NCBI GenBank assembly: GCA_944383875.1
Contig: CALWRD010000120.1
Span: forward strand, 1 to 46,422
Direction of reading: 5' to 3'
Source of the DNA: an uncultured Clostridia bacterium
GTDB lineage: Bacteria > Bacillota > Clostridia > Lachnospirales > CAG-274
DNA length: 46,422 bases
Shown: positions 17,469-32,345 of the stretch, piece after piece
Layout: every line of letters starts with the position of its first letter
How positions within the stretch are numbered: the first letter of the stretch is position 1
Notes under the pieces: generated by a model
What the model was told of the DNA's origin: nothing
Database searches by the model: none
Seen by the model: the letters and a program-made list of their open reading frames with translations, nothing else
Made by a program: the position numbers and the translations under genes

Positions 17469-19358
17469 ATGAAGAACCCCATTGTAAGTAAAATGGTTCT
17501 TCCTCAGTGTGTTACCGATATTTTAAATGCGGTGCCTGAGGTTATTGTACCTGAAAGCAGAGAGCACCTTTTTGATCTCTCATACGGCGGAAAGGGCAAT
17601 AAGACCTTTGATGTAAACTTTGACGTAAACGGAAAATCTGTTCGTGAAGCTTATGTAACAAGATGTAAGAACGGTATGGTTATCAATTTTGATGACAAGG
17701 CAATGCGCCGCCGTGACCCTAACTCTATGGTAATTGCGGATCATCTTCCTACAGATAAACCAACCTATGAGGAAAGATTCGGTATACCTTTTGACAGTGT
17801 ACGTGAGGAAACTTTTGAATGGCTTAAGGAGAGAGAATCACTTATAGCATTACCTTTCTATGCAGGTAACGAGGATCTTAAGCTCGGTTATCCATGTATT
17901 GCCATAGTACCTACCAACGCTGCATGCTTTGCGGCCATGCTTGCGGATATGCAGTGCTTTATTCCGGCAGATAAGGTACCTAACTTCTTTAAGCCAAAGG
18001 GAATTATATATGTGGCTCCACCTTTCCGTCACACTCATTTTGAAGGAAAGCAGGTTGTAGTACATAACCGTATGTACGATATGCAGGAAGTATTCAGCTA
18101 CAACCTCTATCCCGGTCCATCAGCCAAGAAGGGTGTTTACAGTATCCTTCTTAATATAGGCGAGCAGGAAAAGTGGGTAACTCTCCATGCATCAACAGTA
18201 AAGATCATTACTCCATATGAGTTGGAGCTTACTATTATGCACGAGGGTGCTTCAGGCGGCGGTAAGTCTGAGATGACTGAGCCTTTCCACAGAGAGCCTG
18301 ACGGTCGTCTGCTTCTTGCCACAAACACAATTACAGGTGAAAAGACTCTTGTAAATATTGCGGATACATCCGAGCTTCATCCTGTAACCGATGATATGGC
18401 ACTTGCTCATCCAAGTCTTCAGAACGACAGCAAGAAGCTTGTTGTTGCTGATGCTGAAAACGGTTGGTTCCTTAGGGTAAACCATATTGAGCATTACGGT
18501 ACAGAGCCTGAAACAGAGGCAGCTACCATCCATCCAAAGCAGCCTCTTATCTTCCTTAATATGCAGGCAGTTCCCGATTCTACCTGCCTCATTTGGGAGC
18601 ATATAGAGGATGAACCGGGTGTACCTTGCCCTAATCCAAGACTTATTATGTCAAGAAGACTTAAGAATAATATCGTAAGCGGTGCTGTTGAGGTTGATGT
18701 AAGAAGTTTCGGTGTTCGTACTCCACCTACAACCAAGGATAACCCTAACTACGGTATTATAGGTCTTTTCCATGTACTTCCACCTGCACTTGCATGGCTT
18801 TGGAGACTGGTTGCACCACGTGGTTTTGCTAATCCTTCTATTATAGACAACTCAGGCAATGCCCTTAAGAGTGAAGGCGTTGGTTCTTACTGGCCATTTG
18901 CTACAGGTAAGAAGGTTGATCAGGCTAATCTGCTCCTTGACCAGATCTTAAGCACACCTTCTACAAGATACATCCTTATACCTAACCAGTACATCGGCTG
19001 CTATAAGGTAGGTTTTGCAGGTCAGTGGGCTACAAGAGAGTACCTTTCAAGAAGGGGCGGCGCTAAGTTCAGACGTGAAATGCTTGATGAGGCAAGATGC
19101 CCAATCCTTGGTTACGCTCTTAAGTCTATGAAGATTGACGGAAACGACGTACCTAAGGGTCTTTTACAGGTAAATGAGCAGGAGAGAGTAGGCAACGAAG
19201 GTTACGATGCAGGCGCTAAAATCCTTACTGATTTCTTTAAGGAGCAGCTTGTTCAGTTCGATACTTCTTCGCTTGAGCCTCTTGGTCATCAGATTATTCA
19301 GGCTTGCCTTGACGATGCTTCTGTTCAGGATTACTACGATCTCATTCCTAAGCTTTGA
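17469..19358 (+). CDS. Large uncharacterized protein with an HprK/PEPCK-style P-loop (probably the DUF4914 family)
   Basis: 629 aa with a strong AAGGAGG RBS and a central MHEGASGGGKSEMTEP P-loop. Monocistronic, between its own promoter and the liv promoter. The family name is from memory only. Confidence 0.8.
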   Translation: MKNPIVSKMVLPQCVTDILNAVPEVIVPESREHLFDLSYGGKGNKTFDVNFDVNGKSVREAYVTRCKNGMVINFDDKAMRRRDPNSMVIADHLPTDKPTYEERFGIPFDSVREETFEWLKERESLIALPFYAGNEDLKLGYPCIAIVPTNAACFAAMLADMQCFIPADKVPNFFKPKGIIYVAPPFRHTHFEGKQVVVHNRMYDMQEVFSYNLYPGPSAKKGVYSILLNIGEQEKWVTLHASTVKIITPYELELTIMHEGASGGGKSEMTEPFHREPDGRLLLATNTITGEKTLVNIADTSELHPVTDDMALAHPSLQNDSKKLVVADAENGWFLRVNHIEHYGTEPETEAATIHPKQPLIFLNMQAVPDSTCLIWEHIEDEPGVPCPNPRLIMSRRLKNNIVSGAVEVDVRSFGVRTPPTTKDNPNYGIIGLFHVLPPALAWLWRLVAPRGFANPSIIDNSGNALKSEGVGSYWPFATGKKVDQANLLLDQILSTPSTRYILIPNQYIGCYKVGFAGQWATREYLSRRGGAKFRREMLDEARCPILGYALKSMKIDGNDVPKGLLQVNEQERVGNEGYDAGAKILTDFFKEQLVQFDTSSLEPLGHQIIQACLDDASVQDYYDLIPKL

Positions 19359-24465: not shown

Positions 24466-25038
24466 TTATTTATCTGTTTCAAAGGTATATTCACAGTGAT
24501 TTTGTATATCAAAGGTTGTGAAATATTTTTCTTCCATGGGGATCCATTTCGTTTGAAAAGCATTTAACGCTGTCTTGCCGTTACGCTTTTCTATACGCCT
24601 TAGTTGTTCTTCGGGACTAACTGACAGAAAAATATGTATGTCATAATATTTCCACAGCTCGGGATGACAACTGTATGAGCCTTCAACAACAGTAATATTT
24701 TTAGGGTTAATGTAAATCGGCTCTGCAAAGCTAAGGGTATGGCAGTCATAGGGACGGTAGGAGAAGGATTTGCCTTCCTTTAAAGGTATCAGTACTTCTT
24801 CCTTAAACCGTTCATAGTCAACATTTCCCCCTGCTTCCTTTAATCGTTCTTCTGTACGCTGTTCTTTTCTCAGAAAAAAATGATCCATATGTATTATATT
24901 GCAGTTAAGTTCCTTTTGCAGCATTGCAGCGATGGTGGTTTTTCCCGAGGCGGCTCTGCCATCTATTGCAATGAGCAGGGGATAATCTGTTATTTTATTT
25001 ATTGCAGGCAGCAGTGTACTGAGAATATCTTCCGTCAT
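24466..25038 (-). CDS. P-loop kinase of the uridine kinase / nicotinamide riboside kinase-like family
   Basis: 190 aa; LIAIDGRAASGKTTIAAMLQKELNCNIIHMDHFF (Walker A followed by a DxFF-type motif). The start overlaps the stop of the upstream S-component gene (ATGA). Confidence 0.8.
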   Translation of the reverse strand: MTEDILSTLLPAINKITDYPLLIAIDGRAASGKTTIAAMLQKELNCNIIHMDHFFLRKEQRTEERLKEAGGNVDYERFKEEVLIPLKEGKSFSYRPYDCHTLSFAEPIYINPKNITVVEGSYSCHPELWKYYDIHIFLSVSPEEQLRRIEKRNGKTALNAFQTKWIPMEEKYFTTFDIQNHCEYTFETDK

Positions 25039-25607
25039 TGTTTTTTCTCCGTATTAATTACGGCAGTATGCTGTTTTTTGAACTTTACAAGACCGGTTCT
25101 GTTAAGTTCAAGCATAATCACCGGGATAAGTATGAGCTGAAGTATTATACCGGGAACAGCATTTAAAAATGCCCCTGCCATAAACATCTGCCAAGTAAAT
25201 CCGCTTCCGCTTAAACCAAGTAATATTATTTGTACTATGCCCCAAACCGCACGTCCTGCCGCCATAGCGGCAATCATAGAACGATAGAGGGAAATAATAC
25301 ACTGCCAGCGTGAGCGGTTGTATAAAAAACCGATAATAAATCCATAGGTCATCAGTTCAAATGACATTGATATACCTGTAGGAAAAATTATTGGCATACC
25401 GAAGATGGAATATCTCAAAAGGGGTAGTATAAAGCCTACGATTGCACCGTACTGCCAGCCGCATATTAAGCCGCAAAGGAATACGGGTATATGCATTGGC
25501 AGCAGCATATTGCCTATCTGTGGTATTTGCCCCGTAAACAATGGCAGTACCAGACCGATGGCAAGGAACATAGCTGCCAAAGTCATATTTTTAACGTTTT
25601 TACTCAT
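25035..25607 (-). CDS. ECF transporter S component (substrate-specific membrane protein, substrate unknown)
   Basis: 190 aa with about six hydrophobic helices. MTLAAMFLAIGLVLPLFTG...LLPMHIPVFLCGLICGWQYGAIVGFILPLL is typical of the ECF_trnsprt-type S component. No ecfA/ecfT genes are adjacent. Confidence 0.75.
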   Translation of the reverse strand: MSKNVKNMTLAAMFLAIGLVLPLFTGQIPQIGNMLLPMHIPVFLCGLICGWQYGAIVGFILPLLRYSIFGMPIIFPTGISMSFELMTYGFIIGFLYNRSRWQCIISLYRSMIAAMAAGRAVWGIVQIILLGLSGSGFTWQMFMAGAFLNAVPGIILQLILIPVIMLELNRTGLVKFKKQHTAVINTEKKQ

Positions 25608-25619
25608 ATTATCCTCTCC

Positions 25620-26678
25620 TTATTCATCAACACTGACAAGGTTATAGGTACGGCTTCCGAGTCCGATTTGTTCGGCGTGTTCCAAAGTGTGAAGACCGTT
25701 GCGGGATTCGATTCTTTCAACAAGGGAAGCCCCATCCCCATCCTGTTGTTCATATACAAGGTCGATACAAGCCTGATCCAATGCAACAGGGTCCGTTGAA
25801 GCCAGTATACCTATGTCGTGCATATCAGGTTCGGCAGGATTGCCGTCACAGTCACAGTCCACCGACAGACGGTTCATTACATTGACATATGCTATGTTTT
25901 CACCGTTATTTAAGTAATCGGATACGGACTTGCCTGCCTCAGCCATGGACTCAAGAAATGGATCCTGCTCGCCGCCCCATGGGTCGGTGCTGCTCTCCCC
26001 TGCGCTGTGGATAAGGCACTTACCCTCTGTTGAGCCGAGTCCGATGGAAATATTCTTTATAGCGCCGCCGAAGCCTGCCATTGCATGACCTTTAAAGTGG
26101 GAAAGCACTAAGTAGGAGTCATAATCGGCAAAGTGAGCACCCACAAGGTTTTCTTTAAGCTGAGTGCCGCCTTCAACGGGCAGGCTCATTGAACCATCTT
26201 CATCTAAGATTCGGAAGTCGGCTATTGCCGTAAATCCGTGGTCTTCCGCTACCTGATAGTGCATGGCTGTTTCCGCACGGGAACCGCCGTAGGCTGTGTT
26301 GCACTCCACTATGGTGCCGTCAACGGACTGTACCAGATCTTTAATAAGGTCGGGATCAAGGTAATTGCTGGCAGGAGGTTCTCCCGTGGAGAGCTTAACC
26401 GCAACATTTCCCTCGGGTGTCCAGTTGAGTGCACCATATACTGCCATTAATCCTTCGGGACTTATGTCGGTGGTCATATATACAACGGGAGAAGCGGTAT
26501 CTGCCGCATCTTTATTTTCCGTACTCTCTTGTGAAGAGGTGGTGTTTTCGGTTGTTTCCGTTGTACTTTCGGTAGTTGTGGTGGTTTCGGGAATCAGAAT
26601 ATCCCCTCCACAGCCCGATAAAAGCGTGGATGTAACTGCAAGTGATGTAACAAGTGAAATGATCCTGTTATTAATCAT
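25620..26678 (-). CDS. DUF362-like lipoprotein with Thr/Ser/Glu-rich linker
   Basis: 352 aa; signal peptide plus lipobox (LLSGCGG), then the linker TTTTTESTTETTENTTSSQEST. SHFKGHAMAGFGGAIKNISIG and GILASTDPVALDQACIDLV resemble DUF362 motifs (from memory). AAAGGAGG RBS. Confidence 0.75.
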   Translation of the reverse strand: MINNRIISLVTSLAVTSTLLSGCGGDILIPETTTTTESTTETTENTTSSQESTENKDAADTASPVVYMTTDISPEGLMAVYGALNWTPEGNVAVKLSTGEPPASNYLDPDLIKDLVQSVDGTIVECNTAYGGSRAETAMHYQVAEDHGFTAIADFRILDEDGSMSLPVEGGTQLKENLVGAHFADYDSYLVLSHFKGHAMAGFGGAIKNISIGLGSTEGKCLIHSAGESSTDPWGGEQDPFLESMAEAGKSVSDYLNNGENIAYVNVMNRLSVDCDCDGNPAEPDMHDIGILASTDPVALDQACIDLVYEQQDGDGASLVERIESRNGLHTLEHAEQIGLGSRTYNLVSVDE

Positions 26679-29711: not shown

Positions 29712-29742
29712 TAAAAACGGCTGTCGTACTTGCGGCAGCCGT
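29712..29742 (-). terminator. Rho-independent terminator of the B12-regulated operon
   Basis: Minus strand: ACGGCTG-CCGCAAGTACGA-CAGCCGT followed by TTTTTAA, about 34 nt after the stop at 29776. Confidence 0.65.
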
Positions 29743-29775: not shown

Positions 29776-31392
29776 TTATTTCTTTTTCGTTCCCTGCGCA
29801 TAGGTAATAATAACAGCTAGCCTCTTTCTTGTCAAGTCTGTAAAGGCTGTTACAGGGTCAAATTTTTTCTGCATTGATGTGATTTGATCGTTATAACTGC
29901 TGTCGGAACTTTCTTTTGTATAGTCGGTAACATAATACAGCTGTATAATATCGCCATCGGAAAGCTTAATACTGCCCATACTTGCTTCTGGCTCCCTGCC
30001 GTTTATGCTGTATTTCCAGCCGCTGTTTACACCCATATCAAACTCGTACAGAAGATGGGAACTGTCCTCGCCGATAGCGGAAATATATATGCTTTCTTCA
30101 TCACCTGTGGCGGCATATGTCAGTCCTTGATTGTCAAGGGCAGCTTTCACTGCCGTCCATACGCTTGAGCCTGCGTATACGCTTACCGTGTCAGTAAAAT
30201 CAAAGGCGTAACAGGGTTCTTCCAGTGTTGATACGGTTACGCTTATGCTGATGCGCTTGGTGCTGCTTCCGCCTCCTCCGCCCGGACGATTTGAGACGGC
30301 TTCGGTGGTTGTTTCGGTTGAAGCGGCGGTTTCGGCGGTTGGCTTGGCAGAAGTTGTTTCGGTAATTGTTATTTGTGCCGAGGTACTGATTTCTGTTGTA
30401 CTTTCGGCAGTGCTTTCTTCGGCAGCGAAAGAGGTACTTTCGGTGGTACTTTCTATGGCAGCGGTTGTGCTTTCGGTAGAGGGAAGGTCAATGCTGCCTC
30501 CACCGAAACGGAATATATAAACTTTGTTTTCTCCGTTAAGCTGCCTTTTTACGGACACCATGGCTCTGAATGCCTGTTCCGTTGAAAGTGAATTGTGCCG
30601 TGTGTTTGTAAAGCCGAAGGTATAGTCCTCATTCATAAAGGTAAGCAAACCTTCAAGAGAATTTCCGGATTTGATAAAACGGCTGTCGGTGAATATGTCC
30701 ACACCTGCCCCACACAGGGCATTTATAGCAACCGATGTGGAATTGGAATTTTCGACTCCGTAGCGATTGCAGAATGCGCCGCTTTCTCCCTGCATTTGTG
30801 CAAGTGCCTCAATGCCTTTTTCCACGGCTTCGGTGCATTGCTCATATGGGGAAAGAGCCAATATTGCAAGGGAGGTGTTGTCCGTGTCGATTACCGCAGC
30901 TGCTCCAAAGCCTCCAAGTTCATTTTGAGAGGCGAGAATACCGTCAATGAGCTGCTGCCTTGCCAACGGACGGTCATAGCCGTAGGAATCCAGTGCAAGC
31001 AGACCGAATATAAGCTGATTAATTGACATACCATGTATATTTTCACAGATGTAGTCGACAAGCTCCTCATCCCTTATACCTACAGCACTTTTCATTATCA
31101 GTATACGCTCGGCATCGGTTACAAGGCGTATTTCATCATCAATGTTTTCAACATAGCTGCGCATTTCTTCACTTATACAGCCGTCTGCTGCCATATCCGG
31201 CACATACCAGTCACTTATTACTCCTTTTGCATATACTTCGCTTACAACTGCCTCAACTGCCGAAGCGGTTGTAGAAATATCGTGGGATGCTGCATATAAC
31301 ACGTCAGTACCTATACTTGCAAAGGAAAGACTGTTGCCGGAAATTAGTATTGCTGCCGCAAGCAGCAGGGAAATCCATCGCTTAAGCTGCAT
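29776..31392 (-). CDS. Secreted two-domain protein: prenyltransferase-like alpha/alpha-toroid repeats, Thr/Ser/Glu linker, C-terminal DUF4430 (transcobalamin-like) domain
   Basis: 538 aa. Signal peptide MQLKRWISLLLAAAILISGNSLSFA. QNELGGFG and QGESGAFC repeats. Linker STESTTAAIESTTESTS...GGGGGS. C-terminal SGWKYSINGREPEASMGSIKLSDGDIIQLYY. Overlaps the upstream gene by 11 nt. Confidence 0.8.
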   Translation of the reverse strand: MQLKRWISLLLAAAILISGNSLSFASIGTDVLYAASHDISTTASAVEAVVSEVYAKGVISDWYVPDMAADGCISEEMRSYVENIDDEIRLVTDAERILIMKSAVGIRDEELVDYICENIHGMSINQLIFGLLALDSYGYDRPLARQQLIDGILASQNELGGFGAAAVIDTDNTSLAILALSPYEQCTEAVEKGIEALAQMQGESGAFCNRYGVENSNSTSVAINALCGAGVDIFTDSRFIKSGNSLEGLLTFMNEDYTFGFTNTRHNSLSTEQAFRAMVSVKRQLNGENKVYIFRFGGGSIDLPSTESTTAAIESTTESTSFAAEESTAESTTEISTSAQITITETTSAKPTAETAASTETTTEAVSNRPGGGGGSSTKRISISVTVSTLEEPCYAFDFTDTVSVYAGSSVWTAVKAALDNQGLTYAATGDEESIYISAIGEDSSHLLYEFDMGVNSGWKYSINGREPEASMGSIKLSDGDIIQLYYVTDYTKESSDSSYNDQITSMQKKFDPVTAFTDLTRKRLAVIITYAQGTKKK

Positions 31393-32080
31393 TGTTAAGG
31401 GTCCTGTTCAATATCCATGCGGCATCATTGGCAGTGAGGATACCGCTTCTGTCGTAGTCAGACACATCAAGGTCAATGGTGATTGAGTCGGCAAAACGAG
31501 TGTACTGCAATACAGCTGCGGCATCGTCTGCGGTAACTTTCCCGTCACTGTTGCTGTCTCCTCTTAATACATCGGATGTCATATCACAGCTTATACGGCT
31601 GTCAGCCAAAGCACGCATAGCCTCGAAATCCACAGGATCATATATAACTGCGTCCCAGTTTTCATCAAAATCACTTACATATTCCCACAGTATAAACATA
31701 CCGTCATATACCGTATATTCATTTGCGGCGGTTATGAGGGTGTTATAGCTGTCTACATAGTACAACCAACCGCTGGATGGACCGGTAAGTCCGCTGCCCT
31801 GACCGAAAAGAGTTTCATAATAGCTCAGTCCGCTGCCGGATACTACACTGTCAGTATTGTTTTCTATGGCATAGGTCACGTCGGATACGGTTGTACCTGC
31901 CGGTACGGTCAGCCTGCTGCAATTATAGCTTGTTATGGGCTGTGTCTTGTCGGCGGTGTTCCCCCCTCTTGCCATAAAGTAGACGGTTACGGTATCACCT
32001 TCTGCCGCAAATATGCTTAAGGGGCTTATTGCAGCCAGCATAAATACACAAAGCAGAAGGGATAAAATTTTGTTCTTCAT
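31382..32080 (-). CDS. Secreted DUF4430 (transcobalamin-like) domain protein with C-terminal type I dockerin
   Basis: 232 aa. Signal peptide MKNKILSLLLCVFMLAAISPLSIFA. DUF4430-like SSGWLYYVDSYNTLITAANEYTVYDGMFILWEY. Dockerin duplicated Ca-binding loops GDSNSDGKVTADDAAAVL and DYDRSGILTANDAAWIL. AAAGGAG RBS. Confidence 0.8.
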   Translation of the reverse strand: MKNKILSLLLCVFMLAAISPLSIFAAEGDTVTVYFMARGGNTADKTQPITSYNCSRLTVPAGTTVSDVTYAIENNTDSVVSGSGLSYYETLFGQGSGLTGPSSGWLYYVDSYNTLITAANEYTVYDGMFILWEYVSDFDENWDAVIYDPVDFEAMRALADSRISCDMTSDVLRGDSNSDGKVTADDAAAVLQYTRFADSITIDLDVSDYDRSGILTANDAAWILNRTLNNAA

Positions 32081-32112: not shown

Positions 32113-32143
32113 CAAAAAAAATAGGCTATGCAAAGCAAAGCCC
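32113..32143 (-). terminator. Expression-platform terminator of the cobalamin riboswitch
   Basis: Minus strand: GGGCTTTGC-TTT-GCATAGCCT followed by ATTTTTTTT, 33 nt before the ATG at 32080. Confidence 0.6.
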
Positions 32144-32189
32144 ACTGCACCTACGGTGCCCTTGCCTTACTTCGGAAAACAAGTATTAA

Positions 32190-32316: not shown

Positions 32317-32345
32317 ATGATAGCCTAAAACATTCCATCTGTCAA
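32317..32345 (-). promoter_or_regulatory. Sigma-A promoter driving the riboswitch operon
   Basis: Minus strand: TTGACA (32345-40), 17 nt, TATCAT (32322-17). Confidence 0.6.

Follow-up and report, generated by a model that had tools for sequence, protein, structure and literature searches.

A cobalamin riboswitch-headed operon in an uncultured Clostridia bacterium encodes a predicted secreted protein with the two-domain layout of animal B12 carriers

The stretch analysed here, the 46,422-nucleotide (nt) contig CALWRD010000120.1 of an uncultured Clostridia bacterium (GenBank assembly GCA_944383875.1; the window), carries on its minus strand a two-gene operon (31382-32080 followed by 29776-31392) headed by a cobalamin riboswitch. 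The second of these genes (gene 2) encodes a 538-amino-acid (aa) protein that we consider likely to capture corrinoids outside the cell and to be produced under B12 scarcity, and the first (gene 1) encodes a dockerin-bearing partner. A sequence-only reading had described the open reading frame (ORF) at 29776-31392 as an exported protein in which a signal peptide, an alpha/alpha toroid, a Thr/Ser/Glu/Gly linker and a C-terminal DUF4430 domain follow one another as in eukaryotic B12 carriers. The ORF, its length and all the motifs quoted for it (QNELGGFG at aa 156-163, QGESGAFC at aa 201-208 and SGWKYSINGREPEASMGSIKLSDGDIIQLYY at aa 457-487) are found in the sequence, and the order of toroid, linker and beta domain is borne out by an AlphaFold2 model.

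Fold and family of the 538-aa protein

In the AlphaFold2 model, which was built on 40 homologs and has a mean pLDDT (predicted local distance difference test) of 75.6, with values mostly >85 in each of the two domains, 12 helices across aa 39-285 form the toroid with pLDDT of ~90-98, while aa 378-492 form a beta domain with pLDDT of ~80-95. The latter consists of strands 380-388 and 399-406, a helix at 411-421, a hairpin at 425-431/434-441 and strands 447-449, 458-463 and 482-488, all modelled at high pLDDT. A Foldseek search of the model against the PDB, the structure-prediction check proposed along with the sequence-only reading, returned transcobalamin, haptocorrin or intrinsic factor at every one of ranks 1-15, in alignments of ~500 columns that took in both domains (E 1e-10 to 4e-8, probability 1.00). 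As modelled, gene 2 has the two-domain layout of an alpha6/alpha6 toroid and a beta domain in a single secreted chain.

The beta domain aligned with the beta domain of human transcobalamin (5no0, 5np4) at E 9e-6 to 2e-5, with a template modelling (TM) score of 0.74 and a root-mean-square deviation (rmsd) of 3.3 A over 112 columns, and with the DUF4430 structure 3u7z at E 4.5e-4 and TM 0.71. At the level of sequence, Pfam DUF4430 (PF14478) matched aa 408-488 (E=1.1e-10, 42.3 bits against a cut-off of 23.8), and the best PDB sequence match of a beta-domain profile was a transcobalamin beta domain, weak at E=0.023. The transcobalamin-like SLBB clade has been defined by a beta-hairpin insert directly after the helix of a five-strand beta-grasp core (PMC1796856), and the beta-grasp core, the single helix and the post-helix hairpin are all present in the AlphaFold2 model of gene 2; vertebrate transcobalamins carry DUF4430 at their C-terminus (PMC4350170). 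The beta domain of gene 2 is homologous to the beta domain of the animal carriers, in line with the sequence-only reading, which took DUF4430 for the transcobalamin-like C-terminal domain.

The toroid sequence points elsewhere. A toroid profile made from 20 family members matched squalene-hopene cyclase at E=6e-23 and drimenyl diphosphate synthase at 7e-18, with other class II cyclases, prenyltransferase beta subunits and thioester-domain toroids as further matches, and Pfam found SQHop_cyclase_C in 18 and Prenyltrans in 16 of the 20 family toroids. With gene 2 alone, SQHop_cyclase_C matched aa 168-260 below the cut-off (E=0.003), and a single-sequence search against PDB sequences gave insignificant matches only (geranylgeranyl transferase beta at E 0.14 and low-complexity mTOR matches). 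Judged by its sequence, the toroid belongs with the squalene-hopene-cyclase/prenyltransferase toroids, outside the eukaryotic Cobalamin_bind family. Gene 2 resembles the animal carriers in layout and in its beta domain without being a member of Cobalamin_bind by sequence.

These cyclase and prenyltransferase matches, the presence of SQHop_cyclase or Prenyltrans in most members, the putative glycosyl hydrolases of toroid fold that are also among the Foldseek matches, and the dockerin on the gene 1 partner, as in cellulosomal enzymes, would all fit a reading in which the toroid is an enzyme or a glycan-binding module (terpene-cyclase/prenyltransferase-like or six-hairpin glycosidase-like), DUF4430 is an accessory and the likeness to carriers is a mere shared fold. 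However, the class II cyclase motif DxDD is not intact: its counterpart in gene 2 reads D169-T-D171-N, and that of the family as a whole D-x-D-[LVN]. Alignment places the family's D-x-D-x-T-A on the cyclase catalytic D-V-D-D-T-A, with the third Asp replaced, and equally well on non-catalytic cyclase repeats; we read it as a structural repeat of an exported, non-catalytic toroid. Furthermore, the protein is exported, away from isoprenoid diphosphates, and toroid and DUF4430 occur together in 145 of the 150 best cluster representatives of the family. The riboswitch control and the energy-coupling factor (ECF) and cobTS neighbours described below would be left unexplained. An enzymatic or glycan-binding toroid is thus highly improbable, and its terpene-cyclase version was rejected on the broken DxDD, export and genomic context.

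Outside the two folded domains, aa 6-28 is the only strongly hydrophobic stretch of the protein and coincides largely with the predicted signal peptide. The linker is rich in Thr, Ser, Glu and Gly as first described (T 25%, S 19%, E 14%, A 14%, G 10%) and measures 81 aa rather than the ~90 aa first given; it is predicted to be disordered, with pLDDT <50 over aa 304-376, and both its length and its sequence differ between orthologs. No lipobox Cys, LPXTG, intact SLH domain or dockerin was found on the 538-aa protein. A membrane or wall anchor was considered and rejected, the tail having no hydrophobic C-terminal helix (maximum Kyte-Doolittle value 0.67) and no anchor motif. This tail (29779-29916, aa 493-538) is kept among close orthologs and contains a modelled helix at aa 513-537 (pLDDT ~60). 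SLH domains of distant relatives have an opening motif FxDV and a closing motif TRxExAxxL, on which FTDL and TRKRLAVIITYAQ of the tail fall in the alignment, and from this the tail may be the remnant of a collapsed SLH anchor.

Operon, riboswitch and dockerin-bearing partner

Along the minus strand, a promoter-like site, the riboswitch, a hairpin with a U8 run, a ribosome-binding site with gene 1, gene 2 and a terminator-like hairpin follow one another (Table 1). The end of gene 1 overlaps the start codon of gene 2 by 11 nt, the riboswitch lies ahead of gene 1, a terminator-like hairpin follows gene 2, and the murA gene downstream has a promoter-like site of its own (29621-29593), indicating that the two genes form one operon. 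The promoter-like site at 32317..32345 is a pattern match only, such sites being about as frequent in the region as in shuffled sequence.

An Rfam search of the whole window found RF00174 as the sole family. The match lies on the coding strand, upstream of the operon and downstream of the promoter-like site, spans the full model (1-189) and exceeds the gathering score of 31.5 bits (E=4e-6 over the whole window). The B12 riboswitch that had been placed upstream of the 538-aa ORF is therefore real, but it is not directly upstream, the 232-aa gene 1 lying in between. The aptamer is a shortened version, with 3 nt where the Rfam model has a 68-nt peripheral extension, and is 121 nt long both here and at the orthologous locus L001. 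Between the aptamer and gene 1, AGUGGGCU pairs with AGCCUAUU in the minimum-free-energy fold and is followed by UUUUUUU. A simple terminator scan made no call at this hairpin (32114..32146), which we infer is likely a terminator-type expression platform. The distance from aptamer to gene 1 is ~105 nt in the window, compared with ~590 nt from the aptamer to the called start of the dockerin-beta gene at a second orthologous locus, L013 (6279-6872).

Gene 1 encodes a signal peptide (aa 1-~25), a divergent DUF4430/beta-grasp-like module (aa ~28-140) and a type I dockerin (aa 174-226). The dockerin was identified by Pfam (Dockerin_1, E=1.7e-5, 25.3 bits against a cut-off of 22.9) and by a match of the gene 1 family profile to solved dockerins (E=7e-6), and its two calcium-binding repeat segments, DSNSDGKVTADDAA and DYDRSGILTANDAA, are visible. 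No cohesin partner for it was found in the window. For the module, several weak lines agree. Its alignment with the DUF4430 region of gene 2 by hhalign gave E=2.3e-4 and a probability of 44%, and PF14478 matches in gene 1 orthologs are weak or faint. The gene 1 model, poor at pLDDT 54 with 10 sequences, has a beta-beta-alpha...beta-beta-beta pattern, and its Foldseek matches, supportive only, list haptocorrin/transcobalamin first (E 6e-3 to 5e-2), before ubiquitin-like folds. Taken together, these lines suggest a divergent DUF4430-type domain, and gene 1 matches the 'second paralogous extracellular SLBB protein' of the operons in Burroughs et al. (PMC1796856).

Most gene 1 orthologs (355-383 aa) carry two tandem modules ahead of the dockerin, where gene 1 has one. 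When gene 1 was aligned with the homologs P0053-P0059, window residues 1-124 fell on module 1 and residues 125-232 on the end of module 2. A 232-aa form that is 99% identical (P0056, 10 member sequences) indicates that the short form recurs. By these alignments it looks like an in-frame deletion between repeats or a repeat collapse in assembly.

Table 1. Features of the riboswitch-headed operon and parts of the gene 2 protein
Feature	Coordinates	Strand	Remarks
Promoter-like sigma-70-type site TTGACA-17-TATCAT	32317..32345	-	11/12 consensus matches; 10 nt upstream of riboswitch
Cobalamin riboswitch aptamer RF00174	32187..32307	-	37.7 bits
Hairpin and U8 run	32114..32146	-	between aptamer and gene 1; minimum-free-energy fold
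Gene 1	31382..32080	-	232 aa; between riboswitch and gene 2
Gene 2 (target ORF)	29776..31392	-	ATG start, 538 aa
Gene 2, signal peptide aa 1-25	31318..31392	-	Sec-type, MQLKRWISLLLAAAILISGNSLSFA followed by S; cleavage predicted between SFA and S
Gene 2, alpha/alpha toroid aa 40-296	30505..31275	-	12 helices, QxxxGGF-type repeats
Gene 2, low-complexity linker aa 297-377	30262..30504	-	ends GGGGGSS; composition, low pLDDT
Gene 2, DUF4430 / transcobalamin-like SLBB beta-grasp domain aa 378-492	29917..30261	-	Pfam, model, Foldseek
Gene 2, C-terminal tail aa 493-538 and stop codon	29776..29916	-	no recognisable anchor
Terminator-like hairpin GGCTG-N11-CAGCC then GTTTTT	29713..29740	-	3' of gene 2; sequence read

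The remainder of the window is core chromosome, with genes for ribosomal proteins, SecY, a liv-type ABC transporter, murA, relA, hisS, aspS and nrdD, and no further B12-related genes were found in these 46 kb. Between the ribosomal/SecY region and the branched-chain amino-acid-type ABC transporter lies a 629-aa protein (17469-19358, plus strand) that consists entirely of DUF4914 (1,040 bits). At 24466-26678 on the minus strand there is a separate three-gene cluster in which no riboswitch was detected. It encodes a DUF362 protein (352 aa, with a lipoprotein-type signal, LSGC, and a Thr/Ser/Glu-rich linker of its own), an ECF S-component (190 aa, with weak folate-/thiamine-type matches only) and a P-loop kinase of the uridine/deoxynucleoside kinase type (190 aa).

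Genomic context in relatives and proposed function

Close homologs of gene 2 (45-99% identity) come from metagenomes only; the nearest genome record is an uncultured Eubacteriales metagenome-assembled genome, and more distant ones are rumen or gut Oscillospiraceae or Clostridia. Riboswitch, dockerin-beta gene and alpha-beta gene are found again as a cassette at L001 (66% identity), which shares the divergent relA neighbour of the window, and at L013, which has other neighbours, namely a LarC-type gene and a sodium:solute symporter. Its retention at both loci in different settings indicates that the three parts travel together. An exhaustive profile search gave 10,781 cluster representatives at E<=1e-3, of which 1,078 reached E<=1e-30. 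Among the best 150 the median length is 1,487 aa, the two domains are often multi-copy and stand in either order, and lengths of <700 aa are confined to the clade of the window protein itself; this ranking favours multi-copy proteins and does not gauge the rarity of the compact form.

The distant relatives, giant surface proteins rich in Ig domains, combine DUF4430 with toroid domains, and their surroundings bear on B12. A B12 riboswitch lies upstream of the relatives at L002, L003 and L006, and at L010 a DUF4430 gene is preceded by an AdoCbl riboswitch. At L003 and L004, a giant toroid+DUF4430 protein, a DUF4430 protein, CbiQ/EcfT, an EcfA-A' double ABC ATPase and an ECF S-component are encoded in that order, and an EcfAA'-S fusion is found nearby at L005. 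At L002, genes for CobT and CobS follow that for the giant toroid+DUF4430 protein. Three cobalamin riboswitch matches (L002, 736-2658), two on the same strand and one on the opposite strand, lie <2 kb upstream of this 2,382-aa protein.

We propose that low intracellular cobalamin would let the operon through at the riboswitch, B12 switching it off, and that both products would be exported via Sec. The toroid and the beta-grasp domain, flexibly linked, would then close around one corrinoid outside the cell in a sandwich, as in the animal carriers. The gene 1 dockerin would probably plug the divergent beta-type module into a cohesin-bearing scaffold at the cell surface, and the two products would capture gut corrinoids and hand them to a membrane importer. 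At L003 and L004 the ECF-type transporter would be the dedicated importer, whereas in the organism of the window the importer would be encoded elsewhere in the genome. As far as computation goes, the extracellular corrinoid-binding protein put forward by the sequence-only reading is supported by the fold, by the conserved riboswitch and by the ECF and cobTS neighbours in relatives. Also in its favour are the joint presence of toroid and beta domain in nearly all of the 150 best representatives and the independent prediction of 2007 for this architecture (PMC1796856).

Several observations weigh against this proposal. No transporter was found in the operon or could be identified in the 46-kb window; the operon consists of two genes, with none for EcfT, EcfA or an S-component. 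The ECF S-component nearby (25035-25607) is unrelated to that of L003 and, standing in a separate operon without a riboswitch, was rejected as the importer. The toroid profile had no match at E<=1 to transcobalamin, intrinsic factor or haptocorrin chains, Pfam gave no match to Cobalamin_bind (PF01122) in gene 2 at E<=0.01, and in Foldseek the isolated toroid resembles terpene cyclases (E 2e-4) more closely than the alpha chain of intrinsic factor (E 4e-3). Over the whole chain, TM scores of 0.47-0.57 and an rmsd of 9-14 A leave domain closure undefined in the model, which is expected given that the disordered linker leaves the relative position of the domains undefined, and this linker is far longer than in the animal carriers. 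The evidence for the gene 1 module is weak, and the score of the riboswitch is modest. In the literature searched, an incomplete library, there were no experiments on B12 binding by bacterial members, and the sole functional study of homologs points to heme, not B12.

That study, by Verplaetse et al., found that a locus of Lactobacillus sakei (L. sakei) with split alpha/beta homologs is needed for heme uptake, in that deletion of lsa1836-1840 impaired heme uptake and complementation restored it (bioRxiv 10.1101/864751). Since carrier-ligand contacts are largely made with the backbone, ligand specificity is unreadable from sequence (PMC1796856). Gene 2 could on these grounds bind heme, or tetrapyrroles generally, and act in heme/iron acquisition as proposed for Lsa1840/Lsa1839. 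By contrast, the cobalamin riboswitch on the operon, on its orthologs and on distant relatives is sensible only if the product affects corrinoid supply, and one relative, at L002, precedes cobT and cobS, which act in lower-ligand attachment. What the L. sakei work demonstrated, moreover, is the need for the whole locus, heme binding by the alpha/beta proteins being a matter of docking only. We regard a heme or general tetrapyrrole ligand as very unlikely for gene 2.

The importer end of the proposed pathway raises another alternative, in which gene 2 would bind corrinoids without import, either sequestering them from competitors or storing or shielding them at the surface, with no hand-over to a transporter. 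The absence of a transporter gene from operon and window is in line with it, as is a 538-aa protein that has no recognisable anchor and may diffuse away. BtuG-type surface B12 binders of Bacteroides, which have extremely high affinity and are discussed as competitive tools, offer a parallel. However, repression by intracellular B12 fits a role in supply, relatives share an operon with complete ECF importers, and the family is found mainly in organisms lacking B12 synthesis (Burroughs et al., PMC1796856). Capture without import is accordingly quite unlikely in our estimate. The main reasons why corrinoid capture for uptake fits the data better than the alternatives are the conservation of the riboswitch and the neighbouring ECF and cobTS genes.

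A bolder version of corrinoid capture, to which we give some weight while thinking it rather unlikely, is an extracellular B12 relay built on cellulosome hardware, in which gene 2 would be a diffusible 'corrinophore' and gene 1, mounted on a cohesin scaffold, would receive the loaded carrier or its ligand. If true, it would be the first cohesin-dockerin assembly for vitamin capture rather than polysaccharide breakdown. Among bacterial architectures, the compact alpha-linker-beta form of ~500 aa would then stand nearest to the ancestral form whose acquisition by animals was proposed by Burroughs et al. in 2007.

B12 capture ahead of membrane transporters in Gram-positive gut anaerobes is a largely unexplored question. 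In Bacteroides, surface B12 binders are decisive for gut competition. The bacterial transcobalamin-like family is large, as the number of its cluster representatives shows, and is still labelled a 'domain of unknown function'. Gene 2, being small, soluble, single-copy and riboswitch-controlled and having a dockerin-tagged partner, is a practical test case for the 2007 prediction of such scavengers, and the locus is also a test case for the proposal that animal B12 carriers came from Firmicutes. It overturns nothing and would not surprise a specialist; it is a tractable experimental lead.

Comparison with known systems

The animal carriers transcobalamin, intrinsic factor and haptocorrin (for example PDB 2bb5, 2pmv and 4kki) are secreted proteins with an N-terminal 12-helix toroid and a C-terminal DUF4430/SLBB beta-grasp domain. 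They are the best structural matches to the gene 2 model over both domains, and their beta domains are homologous to that of gene 2. By contrast, the toroid of gene 2 has no detectable sequence similarity to theirs, its low-complexity linker of 81 aa takes the place of a short one, and a 46-aa C-terminal tail is extra. Gene 2 is, in addition, bacterial and riboswitch-controlled, and its binding role is predicted.

Among bacterial proteins, the function proposed for gene 2 is analogous to that of BtuG/BtuH of Bacteroides, which provide B12-regulated surface corrinoid capture ahead of a membrane transporter. Their folds are unrelated to those of gene 2, BtuG being a beta-propeller. Both are lipid-anchored in the outer membrane of a Gram-negative cell and act together with BtuB, which is TonB-dependent. 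RUMGNA_00854 of Ruminococcus gnavus (3u7z), deposited as a 'putative metal binding protein', shares the DUF4430 fold and an origin in gut Clostridia with gene 2 but is a stand-alone single domain without a toroid. In L. sakei, Lsa1840 (alpha-like) and Lsa1839 (beta-like), together with the ECF-like Lsa1836-1838, likewise represent exported toroid and transcobalamin-beta-like modules of a Firmicute for which capture of a tetrapyrrole and its delivery to an ECF transporter were proposed, and their gene arrangement matches that at L003 and L004. Unlike these separate proteins, the two domains are fused in gene 2, and an additional beta-type protein accompanies it; the window operon stands under a B12 riboswitch and lacks a transporter, whereas the L. 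sakei locus was linked to heme uptake.

The closest precedent is the prediction by Burroughs, Balaji, Iyer and Aravind in 2007 that proteins of low-GC Gram-positives in which a toroid is fused to a transcobalamin-like SLBB domain are B12 scavengers (PMC1796856). The proteins they described have signal peptides and wall anchors, are encoded in operons alongside CbiO/CbiQ genes and a second paralog with SLBB, and come from hosts that lack B12 synthesis (PMC1796856). Like their Desulfotomaculum example, gene 2 joins an N-terminal toroid to SLBB, and it shares with the proteins they described a signal peptide and a low-GC Gram-positive host (PMC1796856). It differs in that their operons usually include CbiO/CbiQ-type transporter genes and the window operon has none, and in that their paper contains neither riboswitch control (the word is absent) nor dockerin-bearing members (PMC1796856). 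Gene 2 is also compact and single-copy, most relatives being giant multi-copy surface proteins.

The sequence-only reading, which knew of no functional description of this type in Firmicutes, therefore set its novelty too high, such scavengers having been predicted in 2007 and the L. sakei homologs having been studied functionally, for heme. Beyond these two works, our literature search found no experimental work with bacterial transcobalamin-like proteins, and no papers on corrinoid binding by a bacterial member or linking dockerins to B12 capture, in a library that is incomplete and so gives no proof of absence. Gene 2 is thus of a known kind, to which the window adds explicit riboswitch control of the compact alpha-linker-beta form together with a dockerin-tagged beta partner; set beside the systems above, only the partner with its dockerin and the compact build of ~500 aa are fresh.

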